From a virus: a DNA stretch of 54,602 nucleotides. The stretch spans positions 1 through 54,602 of IMG/VR virus record IMGVR_UViG_3300011438_000003, one strand, 5' to 3'. Of this stretch, positions 13,776 through 54,602 are shown one piece after another. The position numbers and the translations under genes were made by a program. How positions within the stretch are numbered: the first letter of the stretch is position 1; each line of letters opens with the position of its first letter. The notes beneath the pieces were generated by a model that made no database searches, had not been told where the DNA came from, and saw only the letters and a list, made by a program, of their open reading frames with translations.

Positions 13776-14275
13776 TGGGCGGCCCGAGGAATCCAGACGT
13801 TACCGTCGAGGACGAGAAGACCGTGGCGGCGCTGCTCCGGCTGATTCTCGACGAGATGAAAAAGCTCAACGCTGCTGCTTCGCGCCGAGCCGCAGCGACG
13901 AACGGCGCCACCGTTGCGTCCGACTACGATCTGGATAGCCAGTACGGTGACGAACAGGTCAAGTTCTCGCCGCGGGACTGGACGGGCGCCGACATCAAAG
14001 GGCTACCGATGAGCAACTGCCCGCCCGAAGCGCTCGATCTGCTGGCCAACGCGTTCGACTTCTTTGCGAAGAAGAACGAAGGCAAGATGACCGACAAGGG
14101 GAAGCCAAAAAGCGACTTCGACAAGCGCTCCGCCTCGCGCGCCCGAGGGTGGGCCATTCGGTTGCGCGCCGGTTGGAAGCCGCGCCAGGCGTCAACGTCG
14201 ACAAGCAGCGGCGCCGACTTCGATGACGCCAGCTTCGAGCCCGACGAGTTCGGCGACGCAATGCCTGACCTATGA
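13775..14275 (+). CDS. Hypothetical protein with an acidic C-terminal tail, 166 aa
   Basis: The ATG shares 1 nt with the previous stop. Tail is 'ADFDDASFEPDEFGDAMPDL'. Confidence 0.6.
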   Translation: MGGPRNPDVTVEDEKTVAALLRLILDEMKKLNAAASRRAAATNGATVASDYDLDSQYGDEQVKFSPRDWTGADIKGLPMSNCPPEALDLLANAFDFFAKKNEGKMTDKGKPKSDFDKRSASRARGWAIRLRAGWKPRQASTSTSSGADFDDASFEPDEFGDAMPDL

Positions 14276-14535
14276 ACGCCGCAGCAAACTGTAATGGGGA
14301 CGACATGCCGTCGCCCTTGGAAATCACCCTTCGCAAGAGTTTGAGGAAGACCATGCCCCCGCCCCCCGCAACGACGACACCGCCCGCCGACAAGAAGCGC
14401 AAGCCGCGCGCCGCGAACTGGATGCGCGACGCGAAGCAGCTCACCGACACCCTTTCGCTGTACTCGGCCGAGAAGCGGCAGAAGCTGATCGACTTCGTGC
14501 TCGCTGGGCTTAGTAGCGGAGTGGAAGACCTGTGA
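14272..14535 (+). CDS. Hypothetical protein, 87 aa
   Basis: ATGA overlap. Confidence 0.5.
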   Translation: MNAAANCNGDDMPSPLEITLRKSLRKTMPPPPATTTPPADKKRKPRAANWMRDAKQLTDTLSLYSAEKRQKLIDFVLAGLSSGVEDL

Positions 14536-15044
14536 CTCTCGTAAGCAAACTTGAACGGCAGTTCTTGGGGGCTCGCATCGATGCCAGCCTGCAAACCAAG
14601 CTCGGCGAGTTTCACCGCGCAATGGGCGTGCCTATCCTGCCCACGCCACAGGTGCCGAGCGACGACCGTGTGCGGCTCCGATGCCGGCTCATTCTCGAGG
14701 AGTGCCTCGAGTTCATCGAGTCTTGCGTCGACGTAGGAGAAGGTCAGCCGTGGCACGTATCCTTCAAAAGCGCTGCCCTGAACTTCGCCGCAGCGATTGA
14801 CAAGTCAGCCGTGCGCGTCGATCTGCCCCTGGCAGCCGATGCGCTCGCTGACATCGCATATGTCGTCGAAGGGTCGAACCTGGAGTTCGGAATCGACTCG
14901 GGCCCTGTGCTCGACGAAGTGCAGCGCGCAAACATGGCCAAGGCGAATGGTCCAAGGCGCGCGGACGGGAAGGTCATGAAGCCAGAAGGGTGGACGGCGC
15001 CCGACATCGCCGGAGTACTTGAAAGGCAGAAGGCCGAACAGTGA
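14532..15044 (+). CDS. MazG-like nucleotide pyrophosphohydrolase, 170 aa
   Basis: 'LGEFHRAMGVP', 'RLRCRLILEECLEFIE', 'DALADIAYVVEGSNLEFGID', 'EVQRANMAKANG....DGKVMKPEGWTAPDI' match the all-alpha NTP-PPase (MazG/HisE-like) phage family. GTG start. Confidence 0.7.
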   Translation: MTLVSKLERQFLGARIDASLQTKLGEFHRAMGVPILPTPQVPSDDRVRLRCRLILEECLEFIESCVDVGEGQPWHVSFKSAALNFAAAIDKSAVRVDLPLAADALADIAYVVEGSNLEFGIDSGPVLDEVQRANMAKANGPRRADGKVMKPEGWTAPDIAGVLERQKAEQ

Positions 15045-15232: not shown

Positions 15233-15735
15233 GCGGCTTCGCGTCCAGCACGTCGGTACCGGTCGAGCGATCCAAGATCGAGTTGGATCGGTTACTGGCG
15301 AAGCATGGCGCAACGCAGCGAGGGACTGCACACGACGACGAAGCCGGGTTCGCGGTCGTATTCTTCGCGCTGAGCAGTCGTCAGATCCGTCTACAGATTC
15401 CGCTGCCGAAGGTGGAGGAGTTCGCCAAGCGTCCCGATCCGTATTGGGCTGGGCACTTCAAAGCCGTCACCAACGATCAGAAGTTCAAGAACTGGGAGCA
15501 GGCGTGCCGCACTCGATGGCGCTGCATGCTGCTCATCGTCAAGGCAAAGCTGGAGTTGATCGAGATGAAGCTGTCGACGGTGGATCGAGAGTTCTTGGCT
15601 GACATCACATTGCCCGACGGGCGAAGCGTGGGCGAGTGGCTCAAGCCAGGTATCGAACAGGCGTACATGGGAGGGAAGATGCCGCCGATGTTGGGCATGG
15701 GGAGCGGTCCTGTTGAGGGAGAGTTAGAGCCATGA
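15229..15735 (+). CDS. Hypothetical protein, 168 aa
   Basis: Internal ATG of ORF 15019..15735. The conserved-looking 'RCMLLIVKAKLELIEMKLSTVDREFLADITLPDGRSVGEWL' recalls an uncharacterised phage early-protein family. Confidence 0.6.
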   Translation: MSGFASSTSVPVERSKIELDRLLAKHGATQRGTAHDDEAGFAVVFFALSSRQIRLQIPLPKVEEFAKRPDPYWAGHFKAVTNDQKFKNWEQACRTRWRCMLLIVKAKLELIEMKLSTVDREFLADITLPDGRSVGEWLKPGIEQAYMGGKMPPMLGMGSGPVEGELEP

Positions 15736-15914
15736 CTCTGTCAATCATCGACCGCCTTGAAGCGGAGAACGCGGAGCTGCGCGCTATGGTTGCGCAGCTC
15801 CGGGAGCAGCGAGACGAAGCGCGAGCGTTGGTGTCGCGGGCGGCGCATCGCGAATGGGTGGCGGAATATAACGAGGAGTTCGGCGAAGACGACGACGCGG
15901 GCGGTGGGGTGTGA
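15732..15914 (+). CDS. Small coiled-coil protein, 60 aa
   Basis: ATGA overlap. Heptad-like 'LEAENAELRAMVAQLREQRDEARAL'. Confidence 0.5.
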   Translation: MTLSIIDRLEAENAELRAMVAQLREQRDEARALVSRAAHREWVAEYNEEFGEDDDAGGGV

Positions 15915-16138
15915 GCGGCATGGCCATCCCCATCGATGAATTCATGAGCGCCACCAAGGCCGCCGAGCAGACCGGCAGGCGCCTGGAGCGAGCAGCGATC
16001 GTGCGGCTCGTCCGTCAGGAGCTAAAAGGGTACCGCTCAATCCTTGCGACAACCAAGGTGCCGCAAGAAGCGATCGAAGCAACGCGCGCCGTCTACGTTT
16101 GCTCGGAGCTGATCCGAATGATTGGGGAGCGCAAGTGA
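15911..16138 (+). CDS. Hypothetical protein, 75 aa (GTG start, or ATG 15920)
   Basis: GTGTGA overlap with the previous stop. Confidence 0.5.
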   Translation: MSGMAIPIDEFMSATKAAEQTGRRLERAAIVRLVRQELKGYRSILATTKVPQEAIEATRAVYVCSELIRMIGERK

Positions 16139-16335
16139 CCTCCACCCCGACGCTCGACAAGATGGCAGCGACCTTCTCGCTCCCCGGCAGCACCACCTCG
16201 CCAGCCGCGGGCACGACCGCCGTGGTGGGCATGGAGTCGCTGCCGGCGGCTGAGAGGGAGGAGCTGGAGGCGAAGACGGCGGCGAAGAGGGAAGAATCGT
16301 TGAAGATGCTACGTCCGAAGAAAGGGAAGCGATAA
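16135..16335 (+). CDS. Hypothetical protein, 66 aa (GTG start)
   Basis: GTGA overlap at 16135. In frame with ORF 16099..16335. Confidence 0.45.
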   Translation: MTSTPTLDKMAATFSLPGSTTSPAAGTTAVVGMESLPAAEREELEAKTAAKREESLKMLRPKKGKR

Positions 16336-17917: not shown

Positions 17918-18345
17918 GTGACGCCGTCACACTTCTAACGAAAGCGCAAGCTGCGCAGTTTTGCAGTGTTTCGGTGACGTCTTTCGAGCGCCACGTTCAG
18001 GCGAACGTCGAATACACTACCGTCGGTCGGCGGCTGCTCTTCTACCGCGACTCCCTCCAGCGATGGCTCGACGATCGCAAGGTTTCGCCCTCAAGCTCCA
18101 CCAAAAGGGGATCTGGTACGTCCGGTTCACGCACCAAGGGCGGCGGACCGATGTCAGCACTGGAGCAAGAGATCATGCGCAAGCTGTTGAAGCCGCGCAA
18201 GGGATCTACGCCGAGACCATCTCTGGCAAAAGGCGAGCGCCGCCCGTCCACCAAAGCGGCGGGTCCGGGATTATCGAAGTCGGCACGCGCTGGCTTGCAG
18301 CGGTCTCGACCGAGCTCGACCCCCTCACCGTCGAGCAATACCTGA
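17914..18345 (+). CDS. xis: Excisionase-family (MerR-like HTH_17) DNA-binding ORF. Only the first ~55 aa look genuine; the tail overlaps int out of frame
   Basis: 'LLTKAQAAQFCSVSVTSFERHVQ...VGRRLLFYRDSLQRWLDDR' is an Xis-type HTH. Residues after ~55 are an S/P/G/R-rich alternate frame of the integrase gene. Confidence 0.55.
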   Translation: MSDAVTLLTKAQAAQFCSVSVTSFERHVQANVEYTTVGRRLLFYRDSLQRWLDDRKVSPSSSTKRGSGTSGSRTKGGGPMSALEQEIMRKLLKPRKGSTPRPSLAKGERRPSTKAAGPGLSKSARAGLQRSRPSSTPSPSSNT

Positions 18346-19088
18346 TGTACACCCGCGCCCACTTCGCCCCATTCTTCGGCACCATCGGCGCCGTGACGAC
18401 GACCAGCGCGGAGTCCTACATCCGCAAGCGGCTCGGCGCTGTACAACGGGACACCGTTCTGAAAGAGCTGTCCGGGCTACGCGGGTTGGTCGGCTGGGCG
18501 GCAGGGGAGGGGTACATCAGCGAGATCCCCCACATCCCGTCACCGCAGAAGAAGGCTACCGGGGAGGTCGTCTACGAGCGCAAGGTGACCGAGCTCTCGC
18601 CCGTTCAAGTCGCCCGCTTCCTTCGGGCTGTAGGCGATCGGCACCTCGCCCGCGAGTACTTCGGACTGATGTACGAGACCACGCTACGGCCCGCCACGCT
18701 GCAAGCGCTGAGCGTTCCCGAACACTTCAGGCAAGGAGCGAAGATGTTGACGATCGAAGACGCGATAGACAAGGCCCGCTTCGGTAGGGAACTGCCGTTG
18801 ACCGCCAAGGCTCGCCAGCTGCTCAAGGCGGCCTCCCCGAAAGCCGGGCTCATCTTCGGCCAGCACGACTACCGAACGCAGCTAGCGAACGCCTGCGCAC
18901 GGGCGAAGTTGCCGCTTTTTACCCCCTACGACCTGCGTCATGCTAGGGCTACCCACCTCCTTGAAACCTCCGGCAACCTTCCAGGTGTGGCGTACCTGCT
19001 CGGACATCGCAATACCGCGACAACGAGCGCGCGCTACGTACATCCGAGCCTGCGAGCTGCCCGTGATGTTTTGGGGAGGCGAAAGTGA
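18063..19088 (+). CDS. int: Tyrosine integrase, 341 aa
   Basis: SAM-like N-domain ('LTVEQYLMYTRAHFAPFFG'). Catalytic residues in 'TTLRPATLQAL' (R), 'TPYDLRHARATHLL' (HxxR), 'LLGH' and 'TSARYVH' (Y). ATG 18063 chosen within ORF 17961..19088. Confidence 0.9.
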   Translation: MARRSQGFALKLHQKGIWYVRFTHQGRRTDVSTGARDHAQAVEAAQGIYAETISGKRRAPPVHQSGGSGIIEVGTRWLAAVSTELDPLTVEQYLMYTRAHFAPFFGTIGAVTTTSAESYIRKRLGAVQRDTVLKELSGLRGLVGWAAGEGYISEIPHIPSPQKKATGEVVYERKVTELSPVQVARFLRAVGDRHLAREYFGLMYETTLRPATLQALSVPEHFRQGAKMLTIEDAIDKARFGRELPLTAKARQLLKAASPKAGLIFGQHDYRTQLANACARAKLPLFTPYDLRHARATHLLETSGNLPGVAYLLGHRNTATTSARYVHPSLRAARDVLGRRK

Positions 19089-19100
19089 GCCCCGAATTGT

Positions 19101-19115
19101 GGGGTACGGTACCCC
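19101..19115. promoter_or_regulatory. 15-bp palindrome GGGGTAC-G-GTACCCC. Further GGGGTAC/GTACCCC heptamers at 19143-19149 and 19282-19288. Candidate integrase arm-type or accessory sites
   Basis: Read directly. The four heptamer copies flank the tRNA-like core. Confidence 0.45.
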
Positions 19116-19179
19116 GAACGGCGCCGCTTTCTGGTGTCCAGTGGGGTACTCTGACGAAATCAGCCGTGAAAAGTATCGA

Positions 19180-19218
19180 GCGAAAGTGGCGGAACTGGCA
19201 GACGCGCAGGATTCAGGT
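19180..19218 (+). other. 5' half of a tRNA-Leu(CAG)-like sequence (acceptor 5' strand, D-arm, anticodon stem 5' strand and loop). Candidate attP core, not a functional tRNA
   Basis: GCGAAAGTGGCGGAACTGGCAGACGCGCAGGATTCAGGT closely parallels bacterial tRNA-Leu(CAG) 5' halves (E. coli leuV: GCGAAGGTGGCGGAATTGGTAGACGCGCTAGCTTCAGGT). The downstream sequence (GCCACTGCG...) cannot pair with CAGGA, and there is no T-arm or acceptor 3' strand. Confidence 0.65.
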
Positions 19219-19326
19219 GCCACTGCGTTGTGTGGATTTCGCCGGGCTTTCTAGCCTGCCGCTGAGTGGTGCCCCAGTCGGGTACCCCAGACCACTAGCC
19301 CAAACCGCCGCAGGCCGGGGGTCGCG

Positions 19327-19548
19327 ATGAGCTTCGAGGGCTGCCGCCACATCGTCATCCTTCGCGAAGAGGACGGCACCGAGCGGAGCTACGACCTCGC
19401 GATCCCGAAGCTCACGCCACCGGCGATCGTGGTGACCGAAGACAGGCGACCGTACTTGCTGACAGACAAGAGCAAGCGGGAGCCTGGCAGAGAGTGGATC
19501 TACGAGCAGCCGTCGTGGACGCTGGTGAGAGAACGGAGGTCGCGATGA
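19327..19548 (+). CDS. Hypothetical protein, 73 aa
   Basis: ATG preceded by a G-rich SD (ccgggggtcgcgATG). First gene after attP. Confidence 0.55.
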   Translation: MSFEGCRHIVILREEDGTERSYDLAIPKLTPPAIVVTEDRRPYLLTDKSKREPGREWIYEQPSWTLVRERRSR

Positions 19549-19901
19549 GTGAGCGCGTGATGTGGGCGGAGAAGCTAACGGCAGGCTGCTGCGCCGGGAG
19601 CTGGGCCAGCGGCAACTGCTCCGACTCGGTCTATCGAAAGGATATGCGCGCTCTCAGGAGCCGACCTGAAGCGCTCCTGCTCGCTAGCAAGTTCGAGGAG
19701 GAGTCCAACGCCCGCCTCGTCAAGGTGACCTTCAAGCCACGGGCTAAGCCGGCGGAGAAGAGCCTGGAGCAGGTTGGCTACGAAGGATTCTATGGTCCAC
19801 GCGGCTGGGACACTCTCGACCGCAAGACGCGGTGCATGTGGAACTCTGGTGCGATGGCAGTCGAAGCAGAGGTTCTGAAGAGGCACGGGGTGAAGCTGTG
19901 A
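19545..19901 (+). CDS. Hypothetical Cys-rich protein, 118 aa
   Basis: ATGA overlap. Internal ATG of ORF 19494..19901. Confidence 0.55.
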   Translation: MSERVMWAEKLTAGCCAGSWASGNCSDSVYRKDMRALRSRPEALLLASKFEEESNARLVKVTFKPRAKPAEKSLEQVGYEGFYGPRGWDTLDRKTRCMWNSGAMAVEAEVLKRHGVKL

Positions 19902-19999
19902 CTTTCGACTTGGGCATGATGCTCGCCGCCTCGGGCATCTCGCTGTGGGCTGGCTACTTGGCTGGCTGCTTGGTCACAGAATGGAGTAGCCGCCGATGA
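19898..19999 (+). CDS. Possible small membrane peptide, 33 aa (GTG start)
   Basis: 'VTFDLGMMLAASGISLWAGYLAGCLVTEWSSRR', translated by hand. GTGA overlap with the previous stop. Confidence 0.3.
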   Translation: MTFDLGMMLAASGISLWAGYLAGCLVTEWSSRR

Positions 20000-20027
20000 C
20001 CCCCTCTCTACCTAAGGAGTGTGTGCC

Positions 20028-20453
20028 GTGAAAAAGTACCGCATTCACGTCGAGTACAGGAGCCCGGTAGACATCGTTATTGAGGCCGCGTCGTACAGCG
20101 CGGTCCTCGACCTTGGGCGACGCATCGCCGAGGCTCACGATAGACCGCGCGCGACCGTTCACGCGGTTGAGACCAGCCCGCCCCGTCACTTCGAGGCTTT
20201 CGTGAGCCACCCGATCCTCTCGAAAGAGGAGCGCGACATCATGGAGCACGCCACCGCTTGGAATCACAAGCAGCGTCTCTACCGAAACCATTTCGTGACC
20301 GACCACGACTCGGACGACGGGAAGATTATCGCTGGTCTCATTGAGCGCGGACTGATGGCGATGACCCGGCAAGGCGGTCAGCTGTCCGGCGGCATGCCGG
20401 TGTTTGCGGTCACCAAAGCTGGACAGGACGAGCTAGCCAAGGAGTCACCATGA
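20028..20453 (+). CDS. Hypothetical protein, 141 aa (GTG start)
   Basis: AAGGAG SD (20014-20019) 8 nt upstream of GTG 20028. Confidence 0.6.
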   Translation: MKKYRIHVEYRSPVDIVIEAASYSAVLDLGRRIAEAHDRPRATVHAVETSPPRHFEAFVSHPILSKEERDIMEHATAWNHKQRLYRNHFVTDHDSDDGKIIAGLIERGLMAMTRQGGQLSGGMPVFAVTKAGQDELAKESP

Positions 20454-20623
20454 GCCCCCCGGCAGCCGGGCCCGGGCGGCGCGTGTGTCGAATTCGACGG
20501 AACTTGAGCACGTCGAGGTCTCGCGCGTGGTGGGCCGATGCTCTGCGCGTGGCGGCAATAGTGCGGACCTGGCCCGATTGGAAGCGGGCGGGCATCAACG
20601 TTGCGGAGAGGCGGACAAAATGA
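20450..20623 (+). CDS. Hypothetical small basic protein, 57 aa
   Basis: Hand-translated 'MSPPAAGPGRRVCRIRRNLSTSRSRAWWADALRVAAIVRTWPDWKRAGINVAERRTK'. AAGGAG SD upstream. ATGA overlaps at both ends. Not in the ORF track (<60 aa). Confidence 0.45.
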   Translation: MSPPAAGPGRRVCRIRRNLSTSRSRAWWADALRVAAIVRTWPDWKRAGINVAERRTK

Positions 20624-21225
20624 CCCAAGAGTGCCAGCATCCCAGGACAGGCAGCGTTAGCGGCCTAAACGGCGTGAGGCGATGGTGTCTCGAGTGCAAC
20701 GCCGATCTAACGGACAAGGCCATTGTGTATCGAGAGGCCATTAAGCACATCGGTAAAGAGCTGGACGTCTCTCTGGAGAACCTAGAGAGCATTGGGGGCC
20801 TACCTGTCGGCGCCCTTACTGAGCCGCTCCCCGCGCCGGTCAGCGCGGCATCTCAATGCATCTGCAACGTCGGTCTTGCGAAGCGTCGCCATCAGCCGTG
20901 GTGCCCCAAGGGCGCCGAGCCGGGCGGCGCGGTAGCCCCGCGGTGCACGTGCGAGCGAGGTGAGACGCACCGGTGCCCGGTTCACGGCAGCGCGCTAGCC
21001 AGTGAGCCCGCGCGGGGACTCGAGGTCGGTCATTACGTGGGAGGCGGCGCGAAGCTGGCCTATCGGGACGGCTACGCCGCGGGTCTCACCCGAGCGGCAG
21101 AGCTGTGCGACAAGCACCTCGCAGAATGGGCCCAGCTCGAAATCAACCAATACGTCTTCGGCCACAAGAGCGCGGCGATCGACCTCGCAATCGCCATTCG
21201 GGCCGAGCTGAAAGGGGGCCGGTGA
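20620..21225 (+). CDS. Hypothetical Cys-rich protein, 201 aa
   Basis: Internal ATG 20620 of ORF 20485..21225, in an ATGA overlap. Several CxxC/CxC pairs. Confidence 0.55.
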   Translation: MTQECQHPRTGSVSGLNGVRRWCLECNADLTDKAIVYREAIKHIGKELDVSLENLESIGGLPVGALTEPLPAPVSAASQCICNVGLAKRRHQPWCPKGAEPGGAVAPRCTCERGETHRCPVHGSALASEPARGLEVGHYVGGGAKLAYRDGYAAGLTRAAELCDKHLAEWAQLEINQYVFGHKSAAIDLAIAIRAELKGGR

Positions 21226-21226
21226 G

Positions 21227-22159
21227 ATGAAGCCTGAACGACTGGAAGAGATTCAGAAGGACTGCGGGCAGCGTGGGCTCTCGTGGCACTGGTCGGCATG
21301 CACCGATCTGCTCGCTCGCGTCCTCGAACTCGAAGCCGCTCTTGAACAGGCGCGCACGGACCTGAATGTCCAACGTGAGACGTTCATTGCACAAGACAAC
21401 GAGCGTGTGAAGAAGTGGGCGTCAACCGTCGCCGAACTCGAAGCCGCTCTTGAGGCAAGCCGGGCTAACGAGGCGATCGCCCGGGAAGACGCAGGGGTTC
21501 TTGATACTTGCCTCGATGAAACGCGAGCCGACGTCGCCAGACTGCGGGAGGAGCTACGTCAGCTCACAATCGATCGCGACGGTCTGTCGGACATGCTTAA
21601 GCGGACCAAGTCACCAGACATAGCTGCGTTGGAGACGTCCTGCGAGAACATGCGGGAAGGGCTTGAGGCACTCGCGGCGCGAAACGCGCTGCGAGAAGAG
21701 GCCGCCCGACTGCGGGAAGAGCGAGACGAGGCGCGCGGGATTCTGCGAGAAACATGCAATGGAACCATTCGTTTTGATGCTGGCGGCAGAATGTATCCGT
21801 ACCAAGAAATCGCTTTAGCCAAGTGGGACGCCGAGCCCGGGAAGTTGGAAGCCCGCCCGATGAGCGCCTGCCTCTCCACCTACCCCGCGTCCAGCATCCG
21901 CCCCGATCTCGCCGGTACACCATGCGAGCTCCACAAGGGCCACGCGGCTGCTCACCGAGCGACGTGCGACGGATACCAGCTCGGTTGGTGGGATGAGCCT
22001 GTAAACGCCCCAGGCGACGAGCCCTACGCCGAGTGCGCCGCGTGCGGACACGTCAGAGAGCGGCACATCAGCCGGATGGTCGACGGTGTGATGCTCGAGG
22101 AGCCGTGCGATGAGCTGGACGAGGGGTGCGCCTGCTTGGCGTTCGTGGTGAAGGGGTAG
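21227..22159 (+). CDS. Coiled-coil protein with a Cys/His-rich C-terminal domain, 310 aa
   Basis: Long heptad regions ('LELEAALEQARTDL', 'VAELEAALEASR', 'LREELRQL'). C-terminus 'CELHKGH...CAACGHVRERH...CACLAF'. Confidence 0.65.
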   Translation: MKPERLEEIQKDCGQRGLSWHWSACTDLLARVLELEAALEQARTDLNVQRETFIAQDNERVKKWASTVAELEAALEASRANEAIAREDAGVLDTCLDETRADVARLREELRQLTIDRDGLSDMLKRTKSPDIAALETSCENMREGLEALAARNALREEAARLREERDEARGILRETCNGTIRFDAGGRMYPYQEIALAKWDAEPGKLEARPMSACLSTYPASSIRPDLAGTPCELHKGHAAAHRATCDGYQLGWWDEPVNAPGDEPYAECAACGHVRERHISRMVDGVMLEEPCDELDEGCACLAFVVKG

Positions 22160-22167
22160 TGGTCGGG

Positions 22168-22182
22168 GGGTCGGAGGAAACA
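22168..22182 (+). promoter_or_regulatory. Start-associated linker motif, copy 1 (GGGTCGGAGGAAACA), abutting ATG 22183
   Basis: Read directly. Embeds a GGAGG SD. Confidence 0.8.
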
Positions 22183-22404
22183 ATGGCAAGTGTCCACACA
22201 GCGAAGTGCGTCCGATGCTTCGGCGGTCCCGTCGAGATTGTCATGGGTCATGTCACGGCAGAGGTTACCCGTGGAAGCCCAAGAGAGATTGGTGCGGGCT
22301 GGTGCTCGCGTCACCGGTCGAACCCACTGGCCCCCGGCGGGTGGTGTGGTCACTGGCTTCCAAAGATGGGTCTCACGAAGTGGGCGCCTAGCCCGATTGA
22401 TTGA
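22183..22404 (+). CDS. Hypothetical Cys/Trp-rich small protein, 73 aa
   Basis: ATG directly follows motif copy 1. Internal start of ORF 22126..22404. Confidence 0.55.
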   Translation: MASVHTAKCVRCFGGPVEIVMGHVTAEVTRGSPREIGAGWCSRHRSNPLAPGGWCGHWLPKMGLTKWAPSPID

Positions 22405-22406
22405 CC

Positions 22407-22421
22407 GGGTCGGAGGGAACA
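22407..22421 (+). promoter_or_regulatory. Start-associated linker motif, copy 2 (GGGTCGGAGGGAACA), abutting ATG 22422 but without a credible downstream ORF
   Basis: Read directly. Confidence 0.75.
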
Positions 22422-22496
22422 ATGCACTGGACGATCAAAGGTTGGCTCTCGCATCAGTGGTGGCGCTTGACCCGCCGGTTTCGAAAGCGACCCGCC

Positions 22497-22512
22497 GGGT
22501 CCGGAGGAAACA
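22497..22512 (+). promoter_or_regulatory. Start-associated linker motif, copy 3 (GGGTCCGGAGGAAACA), 12 nt before ATG 22525
   Basis: Read directly. Followed by a second SD, AGGAGA. Confidence 0.75.
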
Positions 22513-22524
22513 GGAGAATTGAAA

Positions 22525-22770
22525 ATGAAGATCGTGCTGCTGTCTCAATCGAAGGGCGTCGAGGTCATCAACGATGAGAATCCAGAACCTCGCTATGTCG
22601 CTGAGGGAGCCAATAAGATCCCGCACGTGTTGGTTGTGGGGAACGAAATCTACACGCCTTCCGTCGCGGTGTTCGGTGATGAGACGGGAGAGATTGCCGG
22701 CCATGTCTACCTGAAAGCCCACGTACGCCGAATCTCGAAGTCCAAGAAGCCGAAGAAGTCCCTCGTTTAA
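22525..22770 (+). CDS. Hypothetical protein, 81 aa
   Basis: ATG 22525 of ORF 22519..22770. Balanced composition. Lys-rich C-terminus 'KSKKPKKSLV'. Confidence 0.6.
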   Translation: MKIVLLSQSKGVEVINDENPEPRYVAEGANKIPHVLVVGNEIYTPSVAVFGDETGEIAGHVYLKAHVRRISKSKKPKKSLV

Positions 22771-22787
22771 CCGGGTCGGAGGAAACA
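22771..22787 (+). promoter_or_regulatory. Start-associated linker motif, copy 4 (CCGGGTCGGAGGAAACA). Starts right after stop TAA 22768-22770 and ends 2 nt before ATG 22790
   Basis: Read directly. Confidence 0.85.
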
Positions 22788-22789
22788 CG

Positions 22790-22996
22790 ATGAGTACCAA
22801 GAAACCAAAGAAGCCGGTAGCCGTTGAGAGGACAGTTGTGCTCGACGGCTACTATGCGATCCATCCTGGCAATGCCTGGTTCGAACGGCGCGACCCCGTA
22901 GGCCGTTCACAGGTGACATTGTTTGATTTGCTGCCAATCTCGTCTGGGCAGCGAGGTCGCTTCACAGTGACGATCAAATTCGAACCGCTAGACTGA
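22790..22996 (+). CDS. Hypothetical protein, 68 aa
   Basis: ORF headed by motif copy 4. Lys-rich N-terminus 'MSTKKPKKP'. Confidence 0.6.
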   Translation: MSTKKPKKPVAVERTVVLDGYYAIHPGNAWFERRDPVGRSQVTLFDLLPISSGQRGRFTVTIKFEPLD

Positions 22997-23000
22997 CCCA

Positions 23001-23018
23001 CCGGGTCGGGAGGAAACA
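23001..23018 (+). promoter_or_regulatory. Start-associated linker motif, copy 5 (CCGGGTCGGGAGGAAACA), 2 nt before ATG 23021
   Basis: Read directly. Confidence 0.85.
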
Positions 23019-23020
23019 CC

Positions 23021-23245
23021 ATGGGAAGACTAGAATTGGTTGGCAAGCTTGAAGCGATCCGAAATGGCCTCGTGTTCGCAACCGCGGGTGACGACCCGCA
23101 TGATTGGCGCAAGGGGTGCGAGATCGCCAAGACGCAATTGGACGAGTTGAGCAGTGAGTTGGCGACGGTCGATCCCGCTTACGGCAATTGCATGGTGGCC
23201 GGTTGCTACTTGCGGTTGCCTCACTCACACAAGAGCGGCACGTAA
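23021..23245 (+). CDS. Hypothetical protein, 74 aa
   Basis: ORF headed by motif copy 5. Confidence 0.6.
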   Translation: MGRLELVGKLEAIRNGLVFATAGDDPHDWRKGCEIAKTQLDELSSELATVDPAYGNCMVAGCYLRLPHSHKSGT

Positions 23246-23264
23246 CCGCGGGTCCCTTCGAACA
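23246..23264 (+). repeat. Degenerate sixth copy of the linker motif (CCGCGGGTCCCTTCGAACA) that has lost the SD
   Basis: Hand alignment to CCGGGTCGGAGGAAACA. Starts right after stop TAA 23243-23245. Confidence 0.5.
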
Positions 23265-23281
23265 CTACACGGGGCCCCTGC

Positions 23282-23300
23282 TGTGGTAGGAGTGGAGCGA
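23282..23300 (+). promoter_or_regulatory. Second start-associated motif, copy 1 (TGTGGTAGGAGTGGAGCGA), abutting ATG 23301
   Basis: Read directly. 16 of 19 nt are identical to 23488-23506. Confidence 0.8.
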
Positions 23301-23477
23301 ATGAAAACGCAGAAGAAGCCGCCCGCTGTTTACCGCGTCGCTTGGTCGTGCGAAGACTGCGGGCGCCAAGTCACGGTTCCAAACACCAAGGAGTGGGAGC
23401 ACATCACGCCGGCTGTGCTCTGCGCCTGCGAGGCTGCAACTAAGCGACGTCGGGCACTGACTCCGGGAGTCCCTTGA
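23301..23477 (+). CDS. Small Zn-ribbon-like protein, 58 aa
   Basis: 'WSCEDCGRQ...LCACEA'. Internal ATG of ORF 23154..23477, headed by the second motif. Confidence 0.55.
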   Translation: MKTQKKPPAVYRVAWSCEDCGRQVTVPNTKEWEHITPAVLCACEAATKRRRALTPGVP

Positions 23478-23487
23478 GTTGCAACTA

Positions 23488-23506
23488 TGTGGTAGGAGTG
23501 GATCGC
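23488..23506 (+). promoter_or_regulatory. Second start-associated motif, copy 2 (TGTGGTAGGAGTGGATCGC), abutting ATG 23507
   Basis: Read directly. Confidence 0.8.
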
Positions 23507-23797
23507 ATGGATAAATACCCTGACGACTCGCTGAAAACCAAGCTGCCAGATGGGACGGAGCGCTGGGAGATTCAGCCAGACGACGTCGTCTATTGCCGAA
23601 AGGCCAAGCACGGCTACTTTGTCTCTGGTCTCCGCAGTGACACATTGGGGAATCACGACTGGCCGACCGCCGTCAACCAACCTCGCGCTATTTTTGCTAG
23701 CGGGATGCCCGAGCCGCCCCACCGGGAGAATTTGCCAGACAGGCGCAATCAGCCCATCGCGATAATCTTCTACGAGAATCTCGAGCGGATTCTGTAG
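23507..23797 (+). CDS. Hypothetical protein, 96 aa
   Basis: Internal ATG of ORF 23474..23797, headed by the second motif. Its stop abuts the stop of the convergent endolysin gene. Confidence 0.6.
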   Translation: MDKYPDDSLKTKLPDGTERWEIQPDDVVYCRKAKHGYFVSGLRSDTLGNHDWPTAVNQPRAIFASGMPEPPHRENLPDRRNQPIAIIFYENLERIL

Positions 23798-24481
23798 CTA
23801 AGCCACGTCGTCAGGAGGCGGGCCGGCGTGGGCTGGGTCGAAAGCATCGGCGGTCAGGTCGAAGTGGAGCTTAAACGCACGCTCTGCCACGTCGCCCGGG
23901 GTAAGTGGCGGCGTCGGGTCCTCCGCTGGAGCTTCCACTTCAGGCCGTGGCCCGTCATCGACCTCTACCTCGATACGCCCTTGCGCGGACTCGTAGAGCG
24001 AGCGGATCGCGTGGCAGACTTCGGCCTTGGTGACGCCATCGGCATTGCGATCGAATCCCGCGTTCTGCTTGTAAGCGATCGTGCCCCTGGGGAATAGAAC
24101 GTAATCATTCGGCTTCCCAATTCCGGCTGGCCAGAGGATCGACATGTACGTGTCTTCCAGCGTGACGAGCTTGCCCTTCCCGAACCAGAGCAGATACTTG
24201 GCCACATAGTCGAGCTGCTCCACCGCAGACATCGCTACCAGCATCGCGGTCGATGTGCCGAGGTTGCGAGCTGTCGACGGCATGAACTGTATTAAGCCGC
24301 ACGCGCCCGAGCCGGCCTTGTTGAGAATCGACGGGGAGTGAGTCCCGCCCGTCTCGAATCCGATCACCGTGGCGATGTTGTCGACGGCCGTCTCTACGAG
24401 CTGGGAGACTGCCCATAGTCGCCGCTTGTAGGCCAGTGACGTTCCCGCGAGCCCACGCACATTGGCGATTGAGATAATCAT
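23798..24481 (-). CDS. Endolysin, lytic transglycosylase (SLT/GH23-like) type, 227 aa
   Basis: 'VIGFETGGTHSPSILNKAGSGACGLIQFMPSTARNLG' carries the catalytic Glu and the GLIQFMP..TA..LG signature of SLT-like phage muralytic enzymes. Last gene of the late block. Confidence 0.75.
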   Translation of the reverse strand: MIISIANVRGLAGTSLAYKRRLWAVSQLVETAVDNIATVIGFETGGTHSPSILNKAGSGACGLIQFMPSTARNLGTSTAMLVAMSAVEQLDYVAKYLLWFGKGKLVTLEDTYMSILWPAGIGKPNDYVLFPRGTIAYKQNAGFDRNADGVTKAEVCHAIRSLYESAQGRIEVEVDDGPRPEVEAPAEDPTPPLTPGDVAERAFKLHFDLTADAFDPAHAGPPPDDVA

Positions 24482-24897
24482 GAACTACCTCCCAAGAGCC
24501 GCTCGTAGCGCTTCACCCTGCGAGAGACTTCCTTGTCGTTCTCCCGCCTGCCCATGAAGGCGGCGATGCGGGTTCGGACCGTCTTCCCGTGGCTCAGAGC
24601 TCGGAGTGCGAGTTCAGCTTGTAGCCGTGGCGAACGGCAGAACTCACCGATGGGGCCTCTGATGTGCTGGCGATGTAACTGGAACCCGCCGAACGCATGG
24701 CCGTTGTCGCCCAGAATCCGGCAGTCGAGCACCTTGGGCCGCACGCCTCCCTCGGCGTCGAGCGTTGTCGCAAGCAACAGCCCATCTTCGAGCGTTGTCG
24801 CTACCTCCGCGATCGGCGCTGCGAGTTGCTGCGCGTGCGGCTCGGACAAGTGAGCCAGCGCGATCAGCGCTGCGACGATGGGCCCGGATGCGATCAT
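24478..24897 (-). CDS. Secreted lysozyme-like (second SLT-like) protein, 139 aa
   Basis: N-terminal signal-like 'MIASGPIVAALIALAHL', then 'LDAEGGVRPKVLDCRILGDNGHAFGGFQLH', resembling the E...GDxGxAxGxxQ transglycosylase core. ATG 24897 sits in an ATGA overlap. Confidence 0.45.
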   Translation of the reverse strand: MIASGPIVAALIALAHLSEPHAQQLAAPIAEVATTLEDGLLLATTLDAEGGVRPKVLDCRILGDNGHAFGGFQLHRQHIRGPIGEFCRSPRLQAELALRALSHGKTVRTRIAAFMGRRENDKEVSRRVKRYERLLGGSS

Positions 24898-25100
24898 TCT
24901 GTACCGAACCGCTTGTCGACGATGGCCTGTACTGCACTGTCGATTCCCGTCCGCGCAGCCGCCCGCATCATCTCGAGCTCTGCGTTCGCGGCCGCGTGCG
25001 GGTCTTCGGCGCCGTTCTCGAGCGCGCGCCTGAGCGCGTCGCTGGCGAGCCCGAGTGCCGTTTGCACGAGCGGTGACTGGAGCACTTCCCACGGGCTCAT
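24894..25100 (-). CDS. Hypothetical protein, 68 aa
   Basis: ATGA overlaps at both ends. Confidence 0.5.
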   Translation of the reverse strand: MSPWEVLQSPLVQTALGLASDALRRALENGAEDPHAAANAELEMMRAAARTGIDSAVQAIVDKRFGTE

Positions 25101-25408
25101 GTGCCCTCCGGGCAATGCACGTTGAAAGCGCTATTGCCGGTATATATTTCCGCACATTCCGGAGAACTCTTCAGAAGCCCAGCGAGCCCCTTCTTTACGT
25201 CAGCGCACGTCGGCTCGGTCGAAGCGATCGCAACCGCCAAGATGGTGCACTCCGCCGAACTCTTGACGACGTGCACGCGCTCGACGGGCGTCACCGGCTC
25301 CTGCTTGCCGGCGCACCCGGACACCATGAACACCCCGGCCGCTACGCCAGCGAGGACGCAGACGCCGAAGAGCACCAAGGCCCATGAGCGCTTCTGACGG
25401 CGGTTCAC
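25097..25408 (-). CDS. Lipoprotein (o-spanin candidate), 103 aa (GTG start)
   Basis: 'WALVLFGVCVLAGVAAGVFMVSGCAGKQ' gives a signal peptide plus lipobox. GTGA overlap with the holin-like stop. Sits in the lysis cassette. Confidence 0.55.
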   Translation of the reverse strand: MNRRQKRSWALVLFGVCVLAGVAAGVFMVSGCAGKQEPVTPVERVHVVKSSAECTILAVAIASTEPTCADVKKGLAGLLKSSPECAEIYTGNSAFNVHCPEGT

Positions 25409-25590
25409 GGCTCCTCCGGCTTGGTGGCGGACTTCTCGGGAATGTCTCCCGGCATCCGGCCATGAGCCCACCCGAGCAGAAGCGTAGCGGCCCCGGTAGC
25501 GACGACAGTGGCCCCCGGTACGTACACCGCGAGAACCGCGCATCCCACTGCGGCGAGGGTCATCACGAAACGTTGCTGGGCTGGGGTCAT
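25405..25590 (-). CDS. Holin-like two-TM protein, 61 aa
   Basis: Two hydrophobic segments ('FVMTLAAVGCAVLAVYV', 'TVVATGAATLLLGWA') and a charged C-terminus. Sits in the lysis cassette. Confidence 0.5.
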   Translation of the reverse strand: MTPAQQRFVMTLAAVGCAVLAVYVPGATVVATGAATLLLGWAHGRMPGDIPEKSATKPEEP

Positions 25591-26775: not shown

Positions 26776-27101
26776 GGCTTCACCTCCTCGGCTTCTGCGA
26801 CGACGACCACCGCGGGGAACCAGTCAGGCGTCAACATAGCGACCGCCGAGCCCAACGGCTTCGCTACCGCTTGCTTCCCGCCTTGCGTGTCGTCACCCAG
26901 GGCAGTATCGTCCAAGTAGGCCGCTGTGCTGAGCGTGGGGTGCTTCAGCGTTCCGGCTTGGTGGTACGTCCGCCCCTCAGCCTTGCTTGCGTGTATCCCT
27001 CCGCCGATGTCCACACCGTCGCGGGGGTAGCCTTGCTTGACGTCGATGGCGGCTTGGTAGAGGGTCGCATCAGCGAGGGTGAGGCAGACTAGAGCGGTCA
27101 T
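26772..27101 (-). CDS. Hypothetical protein, 109 aa
   Basis: ATGA overlap with the fibre gene stop. Confidence 0.55.
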   Translation of the reverse strand: MTALVCLTLADATLYQAAIDVKQGYPRDGVDIGGGIHASKAEGRTYHQAGTLKHPTLSTAAYLDDTALGDDTQGGKQAVAKPLGSAVAMLTPDWFPAVVVVAEAEEVKP

Positions 27102-28327
27102 GGCGTGCCGTACCGCGCCTTCTGATAGCTGTAGAGCCTGGCTCTATCCGCCGCCGATAGTGCCCGGTTGTATACAATGACCTCTGCGATTCGCGAATTG
27201 CTAAACCCGGCTGGACCGGCGAAATCGCCCGCCCCAAGCATGAAGTTGTCAATATTGGTAATAACTCCGTTGGAGTACGCGGTCGGATCGCCACCGCGTG
27301 CCGCATTGTCAGTAAATAACGAACTGGTCGTTCCTGGCATTACGTGTATCCAGCCGTGCTGCGCCGTGCCCGAGGCTGGACCTATGCCGCTTACGACCGT
27401 CGCGCCATCATCTCTCCTATCAGTTACATAGTTGGCCGGCCCGGCATCCAACCTGAAACGTTCAAAGTCGAGCCCGGACGACGACTGCGACCATGCGAAC
27501 ATTTCCGCCGACGCTACTTGCGTGACGAACTGACCGCTGATGGCATAGGTGAACGGCTTCTGTGTCCCGTTGATGACCGCAAGCATGCTCGCCCCGGTGC
27601 CTCGCAGGTTGTCGTTCACGCCATCGGTCAGAACGGCGGGCTTTCCTCCAAAGCTTGCCGCTTCCCATAGAGGCTGGTTCGCTGCTGTTCCCTGTGAGAC
27701 ATTGTTCCCCAGCCCTGACTGGTCAGCCCATGCAGAGACCTTGGGTTGGGAGACTTCGGCGCGTATTGCGAACACGTTGGAAACACCATCGCCCTGATAG
27801 CTCGGCGTGTTGTCCGCGCTCCCCATGTAAAGCCGCACGGAGCTGCTTGTTGGCGTGATTGTGACACTGAGGAGAAACCAGCCCGGGAAGCCAGCTACCG
27901 CCGTTATCGATCGCGCCGTAGATCCGTCATTGGTTCCGAGTGCCCCGGTGCCTACATTGAACCAACTGCCCTCATTGGTTGTCCCCACGTGTACGAAGCT
28001 GCGGGTACCGGCCTTTACGTACCAAGTAACGGTTGCCGTAAGACCATTCACCCAACTCCCGGCGACCTGTAGCGCCGAATGGACGCCAAGTGTTCCATCC
28101 TCGATGAGGCTATCTGCTAAGCTCGTGCCGAATGGATCCAGCGTCGCGTCCGGCGTTACCGTCGCTCCATTCTTGGTCCATGCTGCATTGTCGAGCGCAT
28201 CCGGAAATGTGAGCGTCGGCGGGTTCAGCGTCACCCCCAAGTCCCCCCTCAGCCAGAGGACGAGGCCGCCGAGCGACTTCGGCGAGAACGGTGGATCAGC
28301 CATCGCGATATGGCGGTGGAGTCTCAC
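27098..28327 (-). CDS. Tail fibre / receptor-binding protein with LamG/ConA-like jelly-roll modules, 409 aa
   Basis: 'LVLWLRGD', 'SAWADQSG.GNNVSQGTAANQPLW', '...RIAEVIVYNRALSAADRARL' are typical of LamG-type phage fibre domains. Start is 28327 (ATGA overlap) or 28303. Confidence 0.6.
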   Translation of the reverse strand: MRLHRHIAMADPPFSPKSLGGLVLWLRGDLGVTLNPPTLTFPDALDNAAWTKNGATVTPDATLDPFGTSLADSLIEDGTLGVHSALQVAGSWVNGLTATVTWYVKAGTRSFVHVGTTNEGSWFNVGTGALGTNDGSTARSITAVAGFPGWFLLSVTITPTSSSVRLYMGSADNTPSYQGDGVSNVFAIRAEVSQPKVSAWADQSGLGNNVSQGTAANQPLWEAASFGGKPAVLTDGVNDNLRGTGASMLAVINGTQKPFTYAISGQFVTQVASAEMFAWSQSSSGLDFERFRLDAGPANYVTDRRDDGATVVSGIGPASGTAQHGWIHVMPGTTSSLFTDNAARGGDPTAYSNGVITNIDNFMLGAGDFAGPAGFSNSRIAEVIVYNRALSAADRARLYSYQKARYGTP

Positions 28328-29643
28328 AAATTCACCCGGTTGAGGTTGCCGACGCCCGCGGTGCCACCCGTCACCCCCGCCGCTGCACCACCAGCGCCAC
28401 CGGCGGAGCCCATTGTCTCGGTGATGACACCTGATCCCAAATTGAAGACCGTCAACCTTCCGCCCGAGCCGCCATTGCCTCCCTTGCCGCCGCCGCCAGT
28501 TCCGAAGCCATTGCCTCCAGCTCCGCCGTTGCCGCCGTCTGCGCTAACAGCGTTCGCCGCTGCTGCTCCCGTGAGCGAGCCGTACGCGAGGTAGCCCCAA
28601 CCGCCGCCGCCACCACCCGCTCCGCCGCCGCCGCCGCGATTTCCGGCAACCGCAGAGCCGCCATTTCCACCAATGCCGCCGTTCGCCTGAATCGCTCCCG
28701 CCGCGGTGCTTGCTGTGCGCTGAATCGTGGCCGCTGCGAGAAAGAGCACGGCACCACCACCGGCAGCACCGCCACCTCCACCTCCAGCGGTGCCGTCGCC
28801 ACCACCGCCACCGCCGCTTGCTCCTGACGCAGCGCCAAAGATCAAAGCGATGGCTGCCACGCTCACATCGTAGGATGCGAGCATTTGGGTGAACCATTGG
28901 ATCGGCGCTGGCCCCATCACGCCCCCGAAGCCCTGCCCGCCGCCGCCTGCGCCGCCTGAACCAGCTCCGCCGTTACCGCTCGAGCCGCCGATGCCGCCAT
29001 TGTTGAGCGTTCCCGCTGCGCCAGCGAAGTTACCTATGGTACCCGCGCCGGTACCGCCGTTGCCGCCCGAGCTGCCCGCCCCACCTTGCCCGATGGTGCC
29101 GATGCTTCCACCAGATCCGCCAGCGCCGCCAGCGCCCGATGCGCTGCCGATGACGCCATTGCCGACGGTCGGGCCAATGGCGCCAGCGCCCGCGGCACCG
29201 ATGTCGAGTACCCCGGACACGAAGACGCGGTAGCCCGCCGTAGCAATCTTGCCCGTGCCGGAGATCGTGAGGTTCCGGTAATACATGTCACGCGTGATGG
29301 TGGTCGTGCCGCTCGTGATGGCCAGATCGCCATCCGAGCCGCTGCCGAAGAGGCCAAAGGCTGCATTTGCAATAAGCGCAGTGGTCAACACGAATCGACC
29401 GGCACCCGTTACGGACGTCGGCTTGATGTAGTTCGTGCCGTCGTCAGCGTTCGTGTTCGCCTCGTCCCACGTGTAGACACCTTTGCCGGTCACGTTGATG
29501 CGCGTAGCCGAGAAATCGACGAGCGTGCGCAGCTCGGCAACTGAGTCAGCCGCAAAGAGCAGCCGCGTTTCGGTGGCGCCAGCGCGCTGCACGAGTTTTG
29601 GCTCGTTGCCTCGATTGGCTATGAAGAACGGGTCGCTACTCAC
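28324..29643 (-). CDS. Glycine-rich tail fibre / minor tail protein, 439 aa
   Basis: Globular N-terminus (~150 aa), then long GGxGG/GxGGxG tracts ('GAGGAGGSGGSIGTIGQGGAGSSGGNGGTGAG', 'GGGGGGDGTAGGGGGGAAGGG', 'GGNGGAGGNGFGTGGGGKGGNGGSGG'). Confidence 0.6.
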   Translation of the reverse strand: MSSDPFFIANRGNEPKLVQRAGATETRLLFAADSVAELRTLVDFSATRINVTGKGVYTWDEANTNADDGTNYIKPTSVTGAGRFVLTTALIANAAFGLFGSGSDGDLAITSGTTTITRDMYYRNLTISGTGKIATAGYRVFVSGVLDIGAAGAGAIGPTVGNGVIGSASGAGGAGGSGGSIGTIGQGGAGSSGGNGGTGAGTIGNFAGAAGTLNNGGIGGSSGNGGAGSGGAGGGGQGFGGVMGPAPIQWFTQMLASYDVSVAAIALIFGAASGASGGGGGGDGTAGGGGGGAAGGGAVLFLAAATIQRTASTAAGAIQANGGIGGNGGSAVAGNRGGGGGAGGGGGGWGYLAYGSLTGAAAANAVSADGGNGGAGGNGFGTGGGGKGGNGGSGGRLTVFNLGSGVITETMGSAGGAGGAAAGVTGGTAGVGNLNRVNL

Positions 29644-54479: not shown

Positions 54480-54602
54480 CGTCTAAAGACAGTGATATAT
54501 AGGGCGCAATGGGGATTTGGCGACACTGGCGACACTCGCGACACTCACGCATTGCTGGGCCCCCCTCTTTCGACGTAGAGAACCGGGTGATATCGGGCAT
54601 CA
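54480..54602. repeat. Terminal direct repeat copy 2 (identical to 1-123)
   Basis: Read directly. Confidence 0.95.

Follow-up and report, generated by a model that had tools for sequence, protein, structure and literature searches.

A recurring stop-to-start connector between small orphan genes at the end of the early operon of an uncultured phage

The complete genome of an uncultured phage, IMG/VR record IMGVR_UViG_3300011438_000003, was analysed over its full length of 54,602 nt (the window), and it contains a rightward (early) operon of roughly 15 kb (~8.7-23.8 kb) whose 3′ end, facing an endolysin gene, is a block of small open reading frames (ORFs). We describe here a short sequence, which we call the connector, that recurs at the junctions between these ORFs and fills the gap from the stop codon of one to the ATG of the next. 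Its consensus is TGA/TAA, 0-8 nt, CCGGGTC, GGAGG, AAACA, 0-2 nt, ATG, and it embeds the Shine-Dalgarno (SD) core GGAGG. Copies with this core are designated type A, of which there is a short and a long subtype; in type A′ the flanks persist while GGAGG is absent; type B is a second shared leader (TGTGGTAGGAGTGGA) that heads ORF6 and ORF7 and is identical at 20/22 nt between them. The ORFs (ORF1 to ORF7) and junctions (J1 to J7) are arranged as follows, with the bounding stop and start codons of each junction in capitals.

21227-22159, plus strand: 310-aa orphan gene directly before the array; J1 opens with its TAG stop (22157-22159).
22160-22182, plus strand: J1, TAG-tggtcg-GGGGGTCGGAGGAAACA-ATG; type A, with GG instead of CC as its first two bases and the ATG directly after it.
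22183-22404, plus strand: ORF1, 73 aa, with a CxxC...C...C arrangement of cysteines; weak coding signal, start backed by a 5-nt SD spacing.
22402-22421, plus strand: J2, TGA-CCGGGTCGGAGGGAACA-ATG; short type A, in which the motif directly adjoins the stop codon on one side and the ATG on the other (0 nt each).
22422-22577, plus strand: ORF2, 51 aa as read now; runs through J3.
22488-22524, plus strand: J3, CGA-CCCGCCGGGTCCGGAGGAAACA-ggagaattgaaa-ATG; long type A, with a palindrome, GACCCgccGGGTC, at 22489-22501.
22525-22770, plus strand: ORF3, 81 aa, an orphan with the best coding signal of the block and a Lys-rich C-terminus (KSKKPKKSLV); its ATG is 12 nt from copy 3.
22768-22789, plus strand: J4, TAA-CCGGGTCGGAGGAAACA-cg-ATG; short type A, the exact consensus.
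22790-22996, plus strand: ORF4, 68 aa, an orphan with the N-terminus MSTKKPKKP.
22994-23020, plus strand: J5, TGA-CCCACCGGGTCGGGAGGAAACA-cc-ATG; long type A, its stop codon being part of a palindrome, GACCCaccGGGTC (22995-23007).
23021-23245, plus strand: ORF5, 74 aa, an orphan.
23243-23300, plus strand: J6, TAA-CCGCGGGTCCCTTCGAACAC-16 nt-TGTGGTAGGAGTGGAGCGA-ATG; a type A′ element plus a type B leader.
23301-23477, plus strand: ORF6, 58 aa, an orphan with a CxxC...CxC arrangement of cysteines.
23459-23506, plus strand: J7, GACTCcggGAGTC-CCTTGA (containing the ORF6 stop)-10 nt-TGTGGTAGGAGTGGATCGC-ATG; a palindrome plus a type B leader.
23507-23797, plus strand: ORF7, 96 aa, an orphan and the final gene of the rightward operon.

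The connector is a property of this block and of no other part of the genome. When the window was searched with GGGTCGGAGGAAACA, allowing ≤3 mismatches, we found 5 matches in 54.6 kb, at 22168, 22407, 22498, 22773 and 23004, against 1.56 on average and at most 4 in shuffled sequences; all five lie on the plus strand, at consecutive junctions between 22160 and 23020. Shorter patterns gave the same picture: plus-strand occurrences of GGAGGRAACA and of GGGTC-N0-2-GGAGG in the whole window are confined to the block, as are all 6 occurrences of GGGTC-N5-7-AACA. One of these six, at 23250-23264, is the copy that an earlier note, made by reading the letters of this DNA, had described as decayed, and it is real. 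Nothing resembling the connector was found in the upstream regions of the other ~70 genes, and no other repeat family in the genome rivals it. The block-specificity proposed in the earlier note was thus upheld by the whole-genome scan, a check set beforehand, which gave no copies elsewhere.

The register of the connector with the coding sequences is equally regular. In copies 1, 2, 4 and 5 (J1, J2, J4 and J5) the SD lies 5-7 nt from the ATG, and the end of the motif is 0-2 nt from the ATG in four of the five copies. In predicted strength of the ribosome-binding site (RBS), the type A junctions rank within the top 11 of 73 genes (-9.5 to -10.3 kcal/mol, compared with a median of -5.8 kcal/mol), and GGAGG would be expected to act as a strong RBS at this spacing. 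On the upstream side, J2, J4, J5 and J6 have no gap between stop codon and connector; in copy 1 the stop lies 8 nt before the 15-mer core of the motif and 6 nt before the 17-mer. The earlier note placed a stop codon 0-8 nt before every motif; this holds generally and fails for copy 3, which has no preceding stop in the frame of ORF2. It had also contrasted the block with a genome otherwise joined by ATGA/GTGA overlaps, which is a tendency and not a rule: genes overlap at 30/59 of the other same-strand junctions.

The type A copies fall into two subtypes that alternate along the array, short (J2, J4) and long (J3, J5), with identities of 19/21 nt between J2 and J4 and of 22/25 nt between J3 and J5. 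Copies 3 and 5 have their 'insertions' at the same position and a palindrome, GACCCNCCGGGTC, in common. The corresponding pattern, GAC[CT]C-N3-G[GA]GTC, occurs 3 times in the whole window, each time at a junction; the palindrome of J7 is a variant of that of J3 and J5 altered on both sides, so that the symmetry is kept. J3 and J5 also stand in the same codon register, and codon 23 of ORF2 (22488-22490) is CGA where J5 has TGA. From this we deduce that the stop of ORF2 was probably lost, which leaves ORF2 overlapping ORF3 by 53 nt; ORF2 was probably once a 22-codon ORF ending at 22488-22490. In J3, 12 extra nt (GGAGAATTGAAA) follow the connector and supply ORF3 with an SD of its own (AGGAG). 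Toward the end of the array the pattern changes: the type A′ element of J6 keeps the frame of GGGTC and AACA without the SD, and both J6 and J7 retain a GGGTC/GAGTC-CCTT element.

The genes that the connectors separate have nothing in common that we could detect. The best blastp E-value among the block ORFs is ~0.6, in agreement with the mutual dissimilarity claimed for them in the earlier note, and an origin of the array by tandem duplication of one ancestral gene was rejected on the same ground. None of the block ORFs has a match in Pfam, PHROGs, NCBIfam or PADLOC, and each is a singleton at 90% identity among ~15 billion proteins. Single-sequence AlphaFold models of ORF3 and ORF7 (pLDDT 41 and 51) were too poor for a fold search. 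An anti-defence or lysogenic-conversion role for this cargo is speculation. We also looked at the imperfect repeat encoding KKPKK on either side of copy 4, which had been offered as a hint of recombination at the connector: the repeat exists (22739-22758 versus 22793-22813, 18/21 identical), and the similarity is not significant on its own (E = 1.0), which counts against the hint. Lys/Pro-rich termini lie near several junctions (22742-22758, 22797-22815 and 23304-23325, ORF6 starting MKTQKKPP), again without statistical significance.

The coding signal is clear for ORFs 3 to 7. Between 22183 and 22520 the coding statistics are ambiguous in every frame and cannot decide between ORF1 plus ORF2 and an alternative annotation, which is the one given by the JGI, ENA and Logan gene callers:

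22190-22522, plus strand: 110-aa ORF with a GTG start, reading through J2 and J3.

The logic of the connector predicts ORF1 (22183-22404) and ORF2 (22422 onward) in its place, and the motif may in this way aid annotation by marking start codons where callers gave the 110-aa ORF. The three assemblies of this contig (JGI, ENA and Logan) are independent and 100% identical over the block, so that no natural variation across it is seen among these three public sources.

A relative of the phage proved informative. A 409-aa virion protein (27098-28327) led us to three contigs, L157, L158 and L159, with the same layout: tail genes, a 400-aa protein, small genes and the endolysin, followed by a small-gene array in convergent orientation. 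The closest of them, L159, is a family-level relative whose structural and early proteins are 27-75% identical to those of the window. Orthologous genes of the two are 69% identical in DNA overall and 53% identical at third codon positions, a value at which silent sites are essentially saturated. Despite this divergence, L159 has connectors, and in the equivalent place, before the last early-operon genes facing the endolysin:

L159 connector 1: TGA-cggtgca-CCGGGTCGGAGGACACA-a-ATG, before a 60-aa gene; type A with one mismatch.
L159 connector 2: TAA-cc-CCGGGTCCCCTGAAACA-ATG, before a 24-codon hydrophobic ORF; both flanks are kept and CCCTG replaces GGAGG, as in J6 of the window.
L159 connector 3: GGTCCCTTCGAACAC-gaggc-TATGGTAGAATTGGAGGAGAG-ATG, before the last gene; a type B leader follows the 15-mer.

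The 15-mer GGTCCCTTCGAACAC is identical to positions 23251-23265 of the window (J6), and the chance expectations in L159 are 0.01 for the type A match and 0.00 for the 15-mer. As in the window, connectors occur only before the last few genes, and the L159 operon is otherwise joined by ATGA/GTGA overlaps. Collinear DNA matches between the two arrays are confined to the connectors; the genes that adjoin shared connectors have no detectable homology between window and L159. Identity of the connectors themselves is 17/18 and 18/20, which has P = 2e-4 and 6e-4 under the third-position rate. This above-neutral identity indicates that the connectors are either under purifying selection or exchanged between lineages. 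The comparison argues both that the non-SD half is conserved and that gene content changes at connectors. The first of these bears out the statement of the earlier note that conservation extends beyond GGAGG, since L159 keeps the CCGGGTC half and an A(A/C)ACA tail; its suggestion of a cassette-shuffling hot spot gains from the second, in that the genes beside shared connectors differ. The type A connector of L159 carries a different palindrome, CGGTGCACCG.

With about even confidence, we interpret the connector as a portable unit (stop, CCGGGTC, strong RBS and ATG) that marks, and probably mediates, the gain and loss of small accessory genes. The block would then be the variable distal tail of the early operon, in which each small orphan is joined to the next by a connector; the copies would share a common origin and would have spread by recombination, and the array would gain, lose or replace its small genes at them. 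A crossover within a connector would swap whole ORFs and leave stop, RBS and start intact, which is what suggests these sites as points of gene exchange. The phage's own RecT-type annealase (see below) is a plausible catalyst. Phage annealases of the Rad52/RecT type tolerate short and diverged homologies.

Several observations weigh against this interpretation. As a stretch of homology for efficient recombination, 17-25 bp is short. The flanks that are kept in the SD-less type A′ copies (J6, and CCGGGTCCCCTGAAACAATG in L159) are unexplained by recombination itself, and a bound factor fits that pattern at least as well. Nor is a wider donor pool visible in public collections, where the exact 17-mer is found only as scattered singles at the chance rate: there are 0 matches in IMG/VR, and the 83 in JGI metagenomes and 65 in GTDB genomes are single copies in unrelated taxa, with ~70 expected by chance (596 Gb). 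The connector is absent from L157 and L158, the more distant relatives. That leaves a single informative relative, too little to retrace any one gain or loss, and among the relatives found there is no closely related pair that differs by a single cassette.

The type A′ copies bring us to an explanation that we regard as the chief rival, possible if less probable than the exchange of genes at connectors, namely that the connector is a cis-regulatory site at which a protein or small RNA binds the mRNA or DNA, co-controlling the translation of the array or the fate of its mRNA. CCGGGTC and AAACA would be the recognition determinants in such a scheme, a tentative assignment that is compatible with gene exchange at the same sites. 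The best argument for it is that type A′ copies (23246-23265 in the window; 14776-14760 in L159) keep the flanks without GGAGG. Further arguments are that non-SD positions are conserved between phages with saturated silent sites, that all copies keep one orientation and a fixed distance to the ATG, that the changes among the five type A copies all lie outside GGGTC, GGAGG and AACA, and that the GAC[CT]C-N3-G[GA]GTC palindrome is always at junctions and once altered on both sides. CCGGGTC and AAACA are not complementary to the generic anti-SD tail ACCUCCUUA, which may not be that of the host. Against a regulatory site, the palindrome is present in only 3/7 junctions and in another form in L159, nothing in a proteome made up almost wholly of orphans could be recognised as a candidate RNA-binding protein, nuclease or regulator, and there is no conserved RNA structure. 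Fold z-scores of the junctions range from -1.1 to +2.1, with no fold beating shuffled controls; a 5-7-bp hairpin is seen in J3 and J5 only, no hairpin is conserved across the copies, and there is no Rfam match. The RNA-processing role raised in the earlier note is therefore unsupported, as is a structured-RNA role, and we discarded a conserved RNA hairpin, a riboswitch and a known RNA family on the strength of the fold controls and of Rfam.

The precedent for a regulatory site is the start-associated sequences (SAS) of Cluster K mycobacteriophages, short asymmetric repeats that lie 3-7 bp upstream of mostly ATG starts and embed an SD core (Pope et al. 2011, PMC3203893). Their conserved flanks cannot pair with 16S rRNA, and upstream stop codons sometimes fall inside them (PMC3203893); matches are defined by GGGATAGGAGCCC with ≤2 mismatches (PMC3203893, PMC12699233), and their function was still unverified in a 2025 survey of 188 Cluster K genomes (PMC12699233). 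The comparison, which the earlier note had drawn, is apt as an analogy (PMC3203893). Like the SAS, the connector sits just upstream of starts, in one orientation, before non-structural genes of unrelated families, is kept in a diverged relative and embeds its SD core within conserved flanks that pairing with 16S rRNA may not explain (PMC3203893). Unlike the SAS, it numbers 5-7 copies in one contiguous array of 1.6 kb instead of 11-19 scattered over a genome arm, which counts against a regulatory site of that kind; it spans the whole gap from stop to start; and it has an SD-less variant, type A′. When its consensus CCGGGTCGGAGGAAACA is read directly against GGGATAGGAGCCC (the window itself not being scanned with the latter), only the GGAG core is common to both. 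About half of the Cluster K SAS have ESAS, 17-bp inverted repeats, none of which is seen in the 17-55-nt junctions as read, no inverted-repeat search having been made.

The hosts differ as well. Cluster K phages infect Mycobacterium, and the host of the present phage is probably Gram-negative and proteobacterial, as judged from a lipoprotein with a spanin-like signal, an SLT-domain lysin and a 253-aa protein with homologues in phages of Pseudomonas, Caulobacter and Xanthomonas. With such a host, membership in the SAS family would be excluded.

A second precedent is closer to the exchange of genes that we favour. The promoter-early stem-loop (PeSL) cassettes of T4-type phages, ~100 bp in length, combine a sigma-70 promoter with a terminator stem-loop (Arbiol et al. 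2010, PMC2839356; PMC4122927). Differences between RB49 and phi1 are put down to recombination between PeSL repeats on either side of orphan genes, for which the advantage of exchanging complete ORFs with their signals intact has likewise been argued (PMC2839356), and the products of this recombination, mini-circles, have been demonstrated experimentally (PMC2839356; PMC4122927). The connector is like a PeSL in being a repeat that extends from a stop to the next SD and start among small orphans, in the gene-content differences found at it (between the window and L159, a single relative), and in its proposed service, which is to let ORFs be shuffled by recombination and to provide them with expression signals. 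It is unlike a PeSL in its length of 17-25 nt, a fourth to a fifth of that of a PeSL, and in having neither a promoter nor a terminator signal and no conserved stem-loop; and where mini-circles have been shown for PeSLs, recombination at connectors is deduced from sequence. Judged by these features, the connector resembles both the Cluster K SAS and the T4-type PeSL and belongs to neither family. The array joins features of the two in an unrelated uncultured lineage, with a tiny unit, an exact stop-to-start span and differing cargo. If the connector does act as a gene-exchange socket, or as a translational operator common to the array, it would offer a compact, synthesisable element, and junction motifs of this sort would look like a recurrent phage solution and not a mycobacteriophage peculiarity.

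A bolder proposal, which we think rather unlikely, unites the two functions: the connector would be a dedicated 17-25-nt adaptor, in effect a gene socket, of temperate phages with Gram-negative hosts, and CCGGGTC and AAACA would be read by a specific phage factor, which might be a recombination protein or else a regulator of translation. If so, the same adaptor would target gene insertion and co-regulate the cargo; it would be a miniature, translation-level counterpart of the integron or the PeSL, and SAS-type motifs would have an origin independent of actinobacteriophages.

The proximity of the copies to one another invites a further account, in which the repeats are passive relics of local duplications of one strong RBS, only GGAGG is functional and the flanks are alike because the copies are young. 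A strong SD would alone suffice as a functional reason for the core, and the two 'extra base' variants are explicable by homopolymer slippage. This account is unlikely in our judgement: the intervening ORFs share nothing, which is at odds with simple tandem duplication; the flanks are kept in L159 at a third-position identity of 53%, which makes them old and constrained, or exchanged; and the type A′ copies keep their flanks without any SD. Two other possible origins of such an array were rejected. Moron-like units with promoters or terminators of their own left no signal, there being no promoter-like sites in 19000-25500 and terminator-like sites only at the chance rate, and a CRISPR-like array does not fit repeats of 15-25 nt whose intervals are coding stretches of 90-275 nt.

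That the genome encodes an integrase, as temperate phages do, and that the connectors are asymmetric sites in short gaps, oriented with transcription, together recall the stoperators of Cluster A phages such as L5, which are asymmetric ~13-bp sites in short intergenic spaces of temperate phages, with a transcription-linked orientation (PMC9283540). By this analogy an immunity repressor would bind the connectors, halt RNA polymerase and silence the array in the prophage. We hold this to be very improbable. Stoperators number >20, are distributed genome-wide and match promoter operators, unlike the connectors, which are confined to one array in the last 1.6 kb of an operon of roughly 15 kb; no operator-like copy was found in candidate promoter or regulatory regions, and weak matches in non-coding gaps occur at the background rate. 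Moreover, the connector holds an ideally spaced RBS, for which a stoperator has no need. A repressor was looked for in the window and none was identified.

The integrase also bears on whether the connectors are integron-like cassette sites served by the phage tyrosine recombinase. The array does recall an integron in its tandem, promoter-less small ORFs of the same orientation with a recurring separator, and the gene for the tyrosine recombinase lies 3 kb upstream of it. An attC site has imperfect inverted repeats, with R''/L'' and L'/R' boxes, and measures ~57-141 bp. The junctions have neither this size nor this structure, the intergenic gaps being 17-24 nt at type A junctions, 55 nt at J6 and 29 nt at J7, all shorter than attC and with no attC-sized imperfect palindrome, and on these grounds the proposal is effectively refuted. 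No GTTRRRY core site is present in J4 as read by eye, no pattern search having been run. The integrase is also not of the integron type (21.9 bits against a cutoff of 265 for the integron integrase model TIGR02249), is co-oriented inside the operon instead of divergent from the array, with no attI/Pc arrangement, and has no counterpart in the 21 kb of L159 that were retrieved, in which connectors are nonetheless present. The earlier note was in error in placing the block next to int-attP, for the integrase lies 3.1 kb and eight called genes upstream.

Further database searches extended neither the motif nor the set of relatives. A degenerate form of the 17-mer and the 15-mer of type A′ gave 3 and 22 isolated matches in IMG/VR, none of them accompanied by proteins in common with the window; the one match that was examined (contig L177) lies within a 1387-aa ORF. 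The sole contig with two near-copies of the 15-mer (L062, Ga0315277_10006872, at 7030-7330) was dismissed as a chance match inside an unrelated ~150-bp repeat, beside which a 164-aa ORF looks by eye like what we presume to be an IS200/REP-type transposase, no search having been made. With the endolysin as an anchor, the best matches (56-57% identity) are in non-syntenic phages with at most one other common gene. No relatives turned up in IMG/VR, whether the query was the endolysin, the 310-aa protein or an alignment of the spanin-like protein, and a nucleotide search of GenBank phages with the window found no match. Four other contigs (L160, L161, L187 and L188) stop short of the equivalent array.

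The genes elsewhere in the window that have been mentioned above are the following; a primase/helicase is also encoded in the genome.

12321-13775, plus strand: 5′-3′ exonuclease fused to a RecT-like annealase, the candidate catalyst at short homologies.
17961-19088, co-oriented within the rightward operon: tyrosine integrase.
23798-24481, minus strand: SLT-domain transglycosylase, probable endolysin; the convergent neighbour that closes the array, as its counterparts do in L158 and L159.

The first of these has a Pol I-type 5′-3′ exonuclease (FEN) domain and a RecT-like annealase domain in one ORF, an unusual single-polypeptide recombination module. At the other end of the block, the rightward operon meets the leftward lysis/structural operon without a spacer, and the stop codon of ORF7 lies directly against that of the endolysin gene at 23795-23800. 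As no terminator is predicted where the operons abut, convergent transcription must be resolved in some other way. In L159 the last array gene and the endolysin gene overlap by 4 nt (13893-13896).

In a set of 1.84 billion cluster representatives, the 310-aa protein encoded directly before the array has no relative over most of its length; the exception is its Cys-rich C-terminal stretch of 41 residues, which is 72% identical in a free-standing 60-aa protein, P0130 (L154, 281-463), known from three short JGI contigs; the contigs that bear P0130 have no connector. The window has, at each of its ends, one copy of an identical direct repeat of 123 nt (1-123 and 54480-54602), and the overlap of the ends by these 123 nt implies a closed molecule of 54,479 bp, circular or terminally redundant.

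Some features of L159 deserve mention in their own right. A 160-aa cargo gene of its array (14206-14688, minus strand) weakly matches the Mom DNA-modification family, below threshold (20.8 bits where the cutoff is 27.1; E = 3e-4), and this is the sole functional hint for any cargo gene. Before the last junction, one frame of a non-coding stretch (~14190-14140, minus strand) reads KPRAAIYMRVSTEEQ, which resembles the catalytic N-terminus of a serine recombinase; Pfam does not confirm the resemblance, and the stretch may be a gene remnant. The two phages also share, at 62% identity, a protein whose gene lies in the leftward arm of the window (7154-7915, minus strand) and, in L159, within the early array, shortly before the connectors (15714-16292, minus strand). 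Its different placement shows that the two genomes are rearranged relative to each other, and one cultured-phage homologue is annotated as a putative DNA methylase. Elsewhere in the window, a gene for a 439-aa protein (28324-29643) contains degenerate GGC/GCC-rich repeats, four copies of ~45 nt at 28460-29020, which suggest a Gly-rich, collagen-like segment of a tail fibre.

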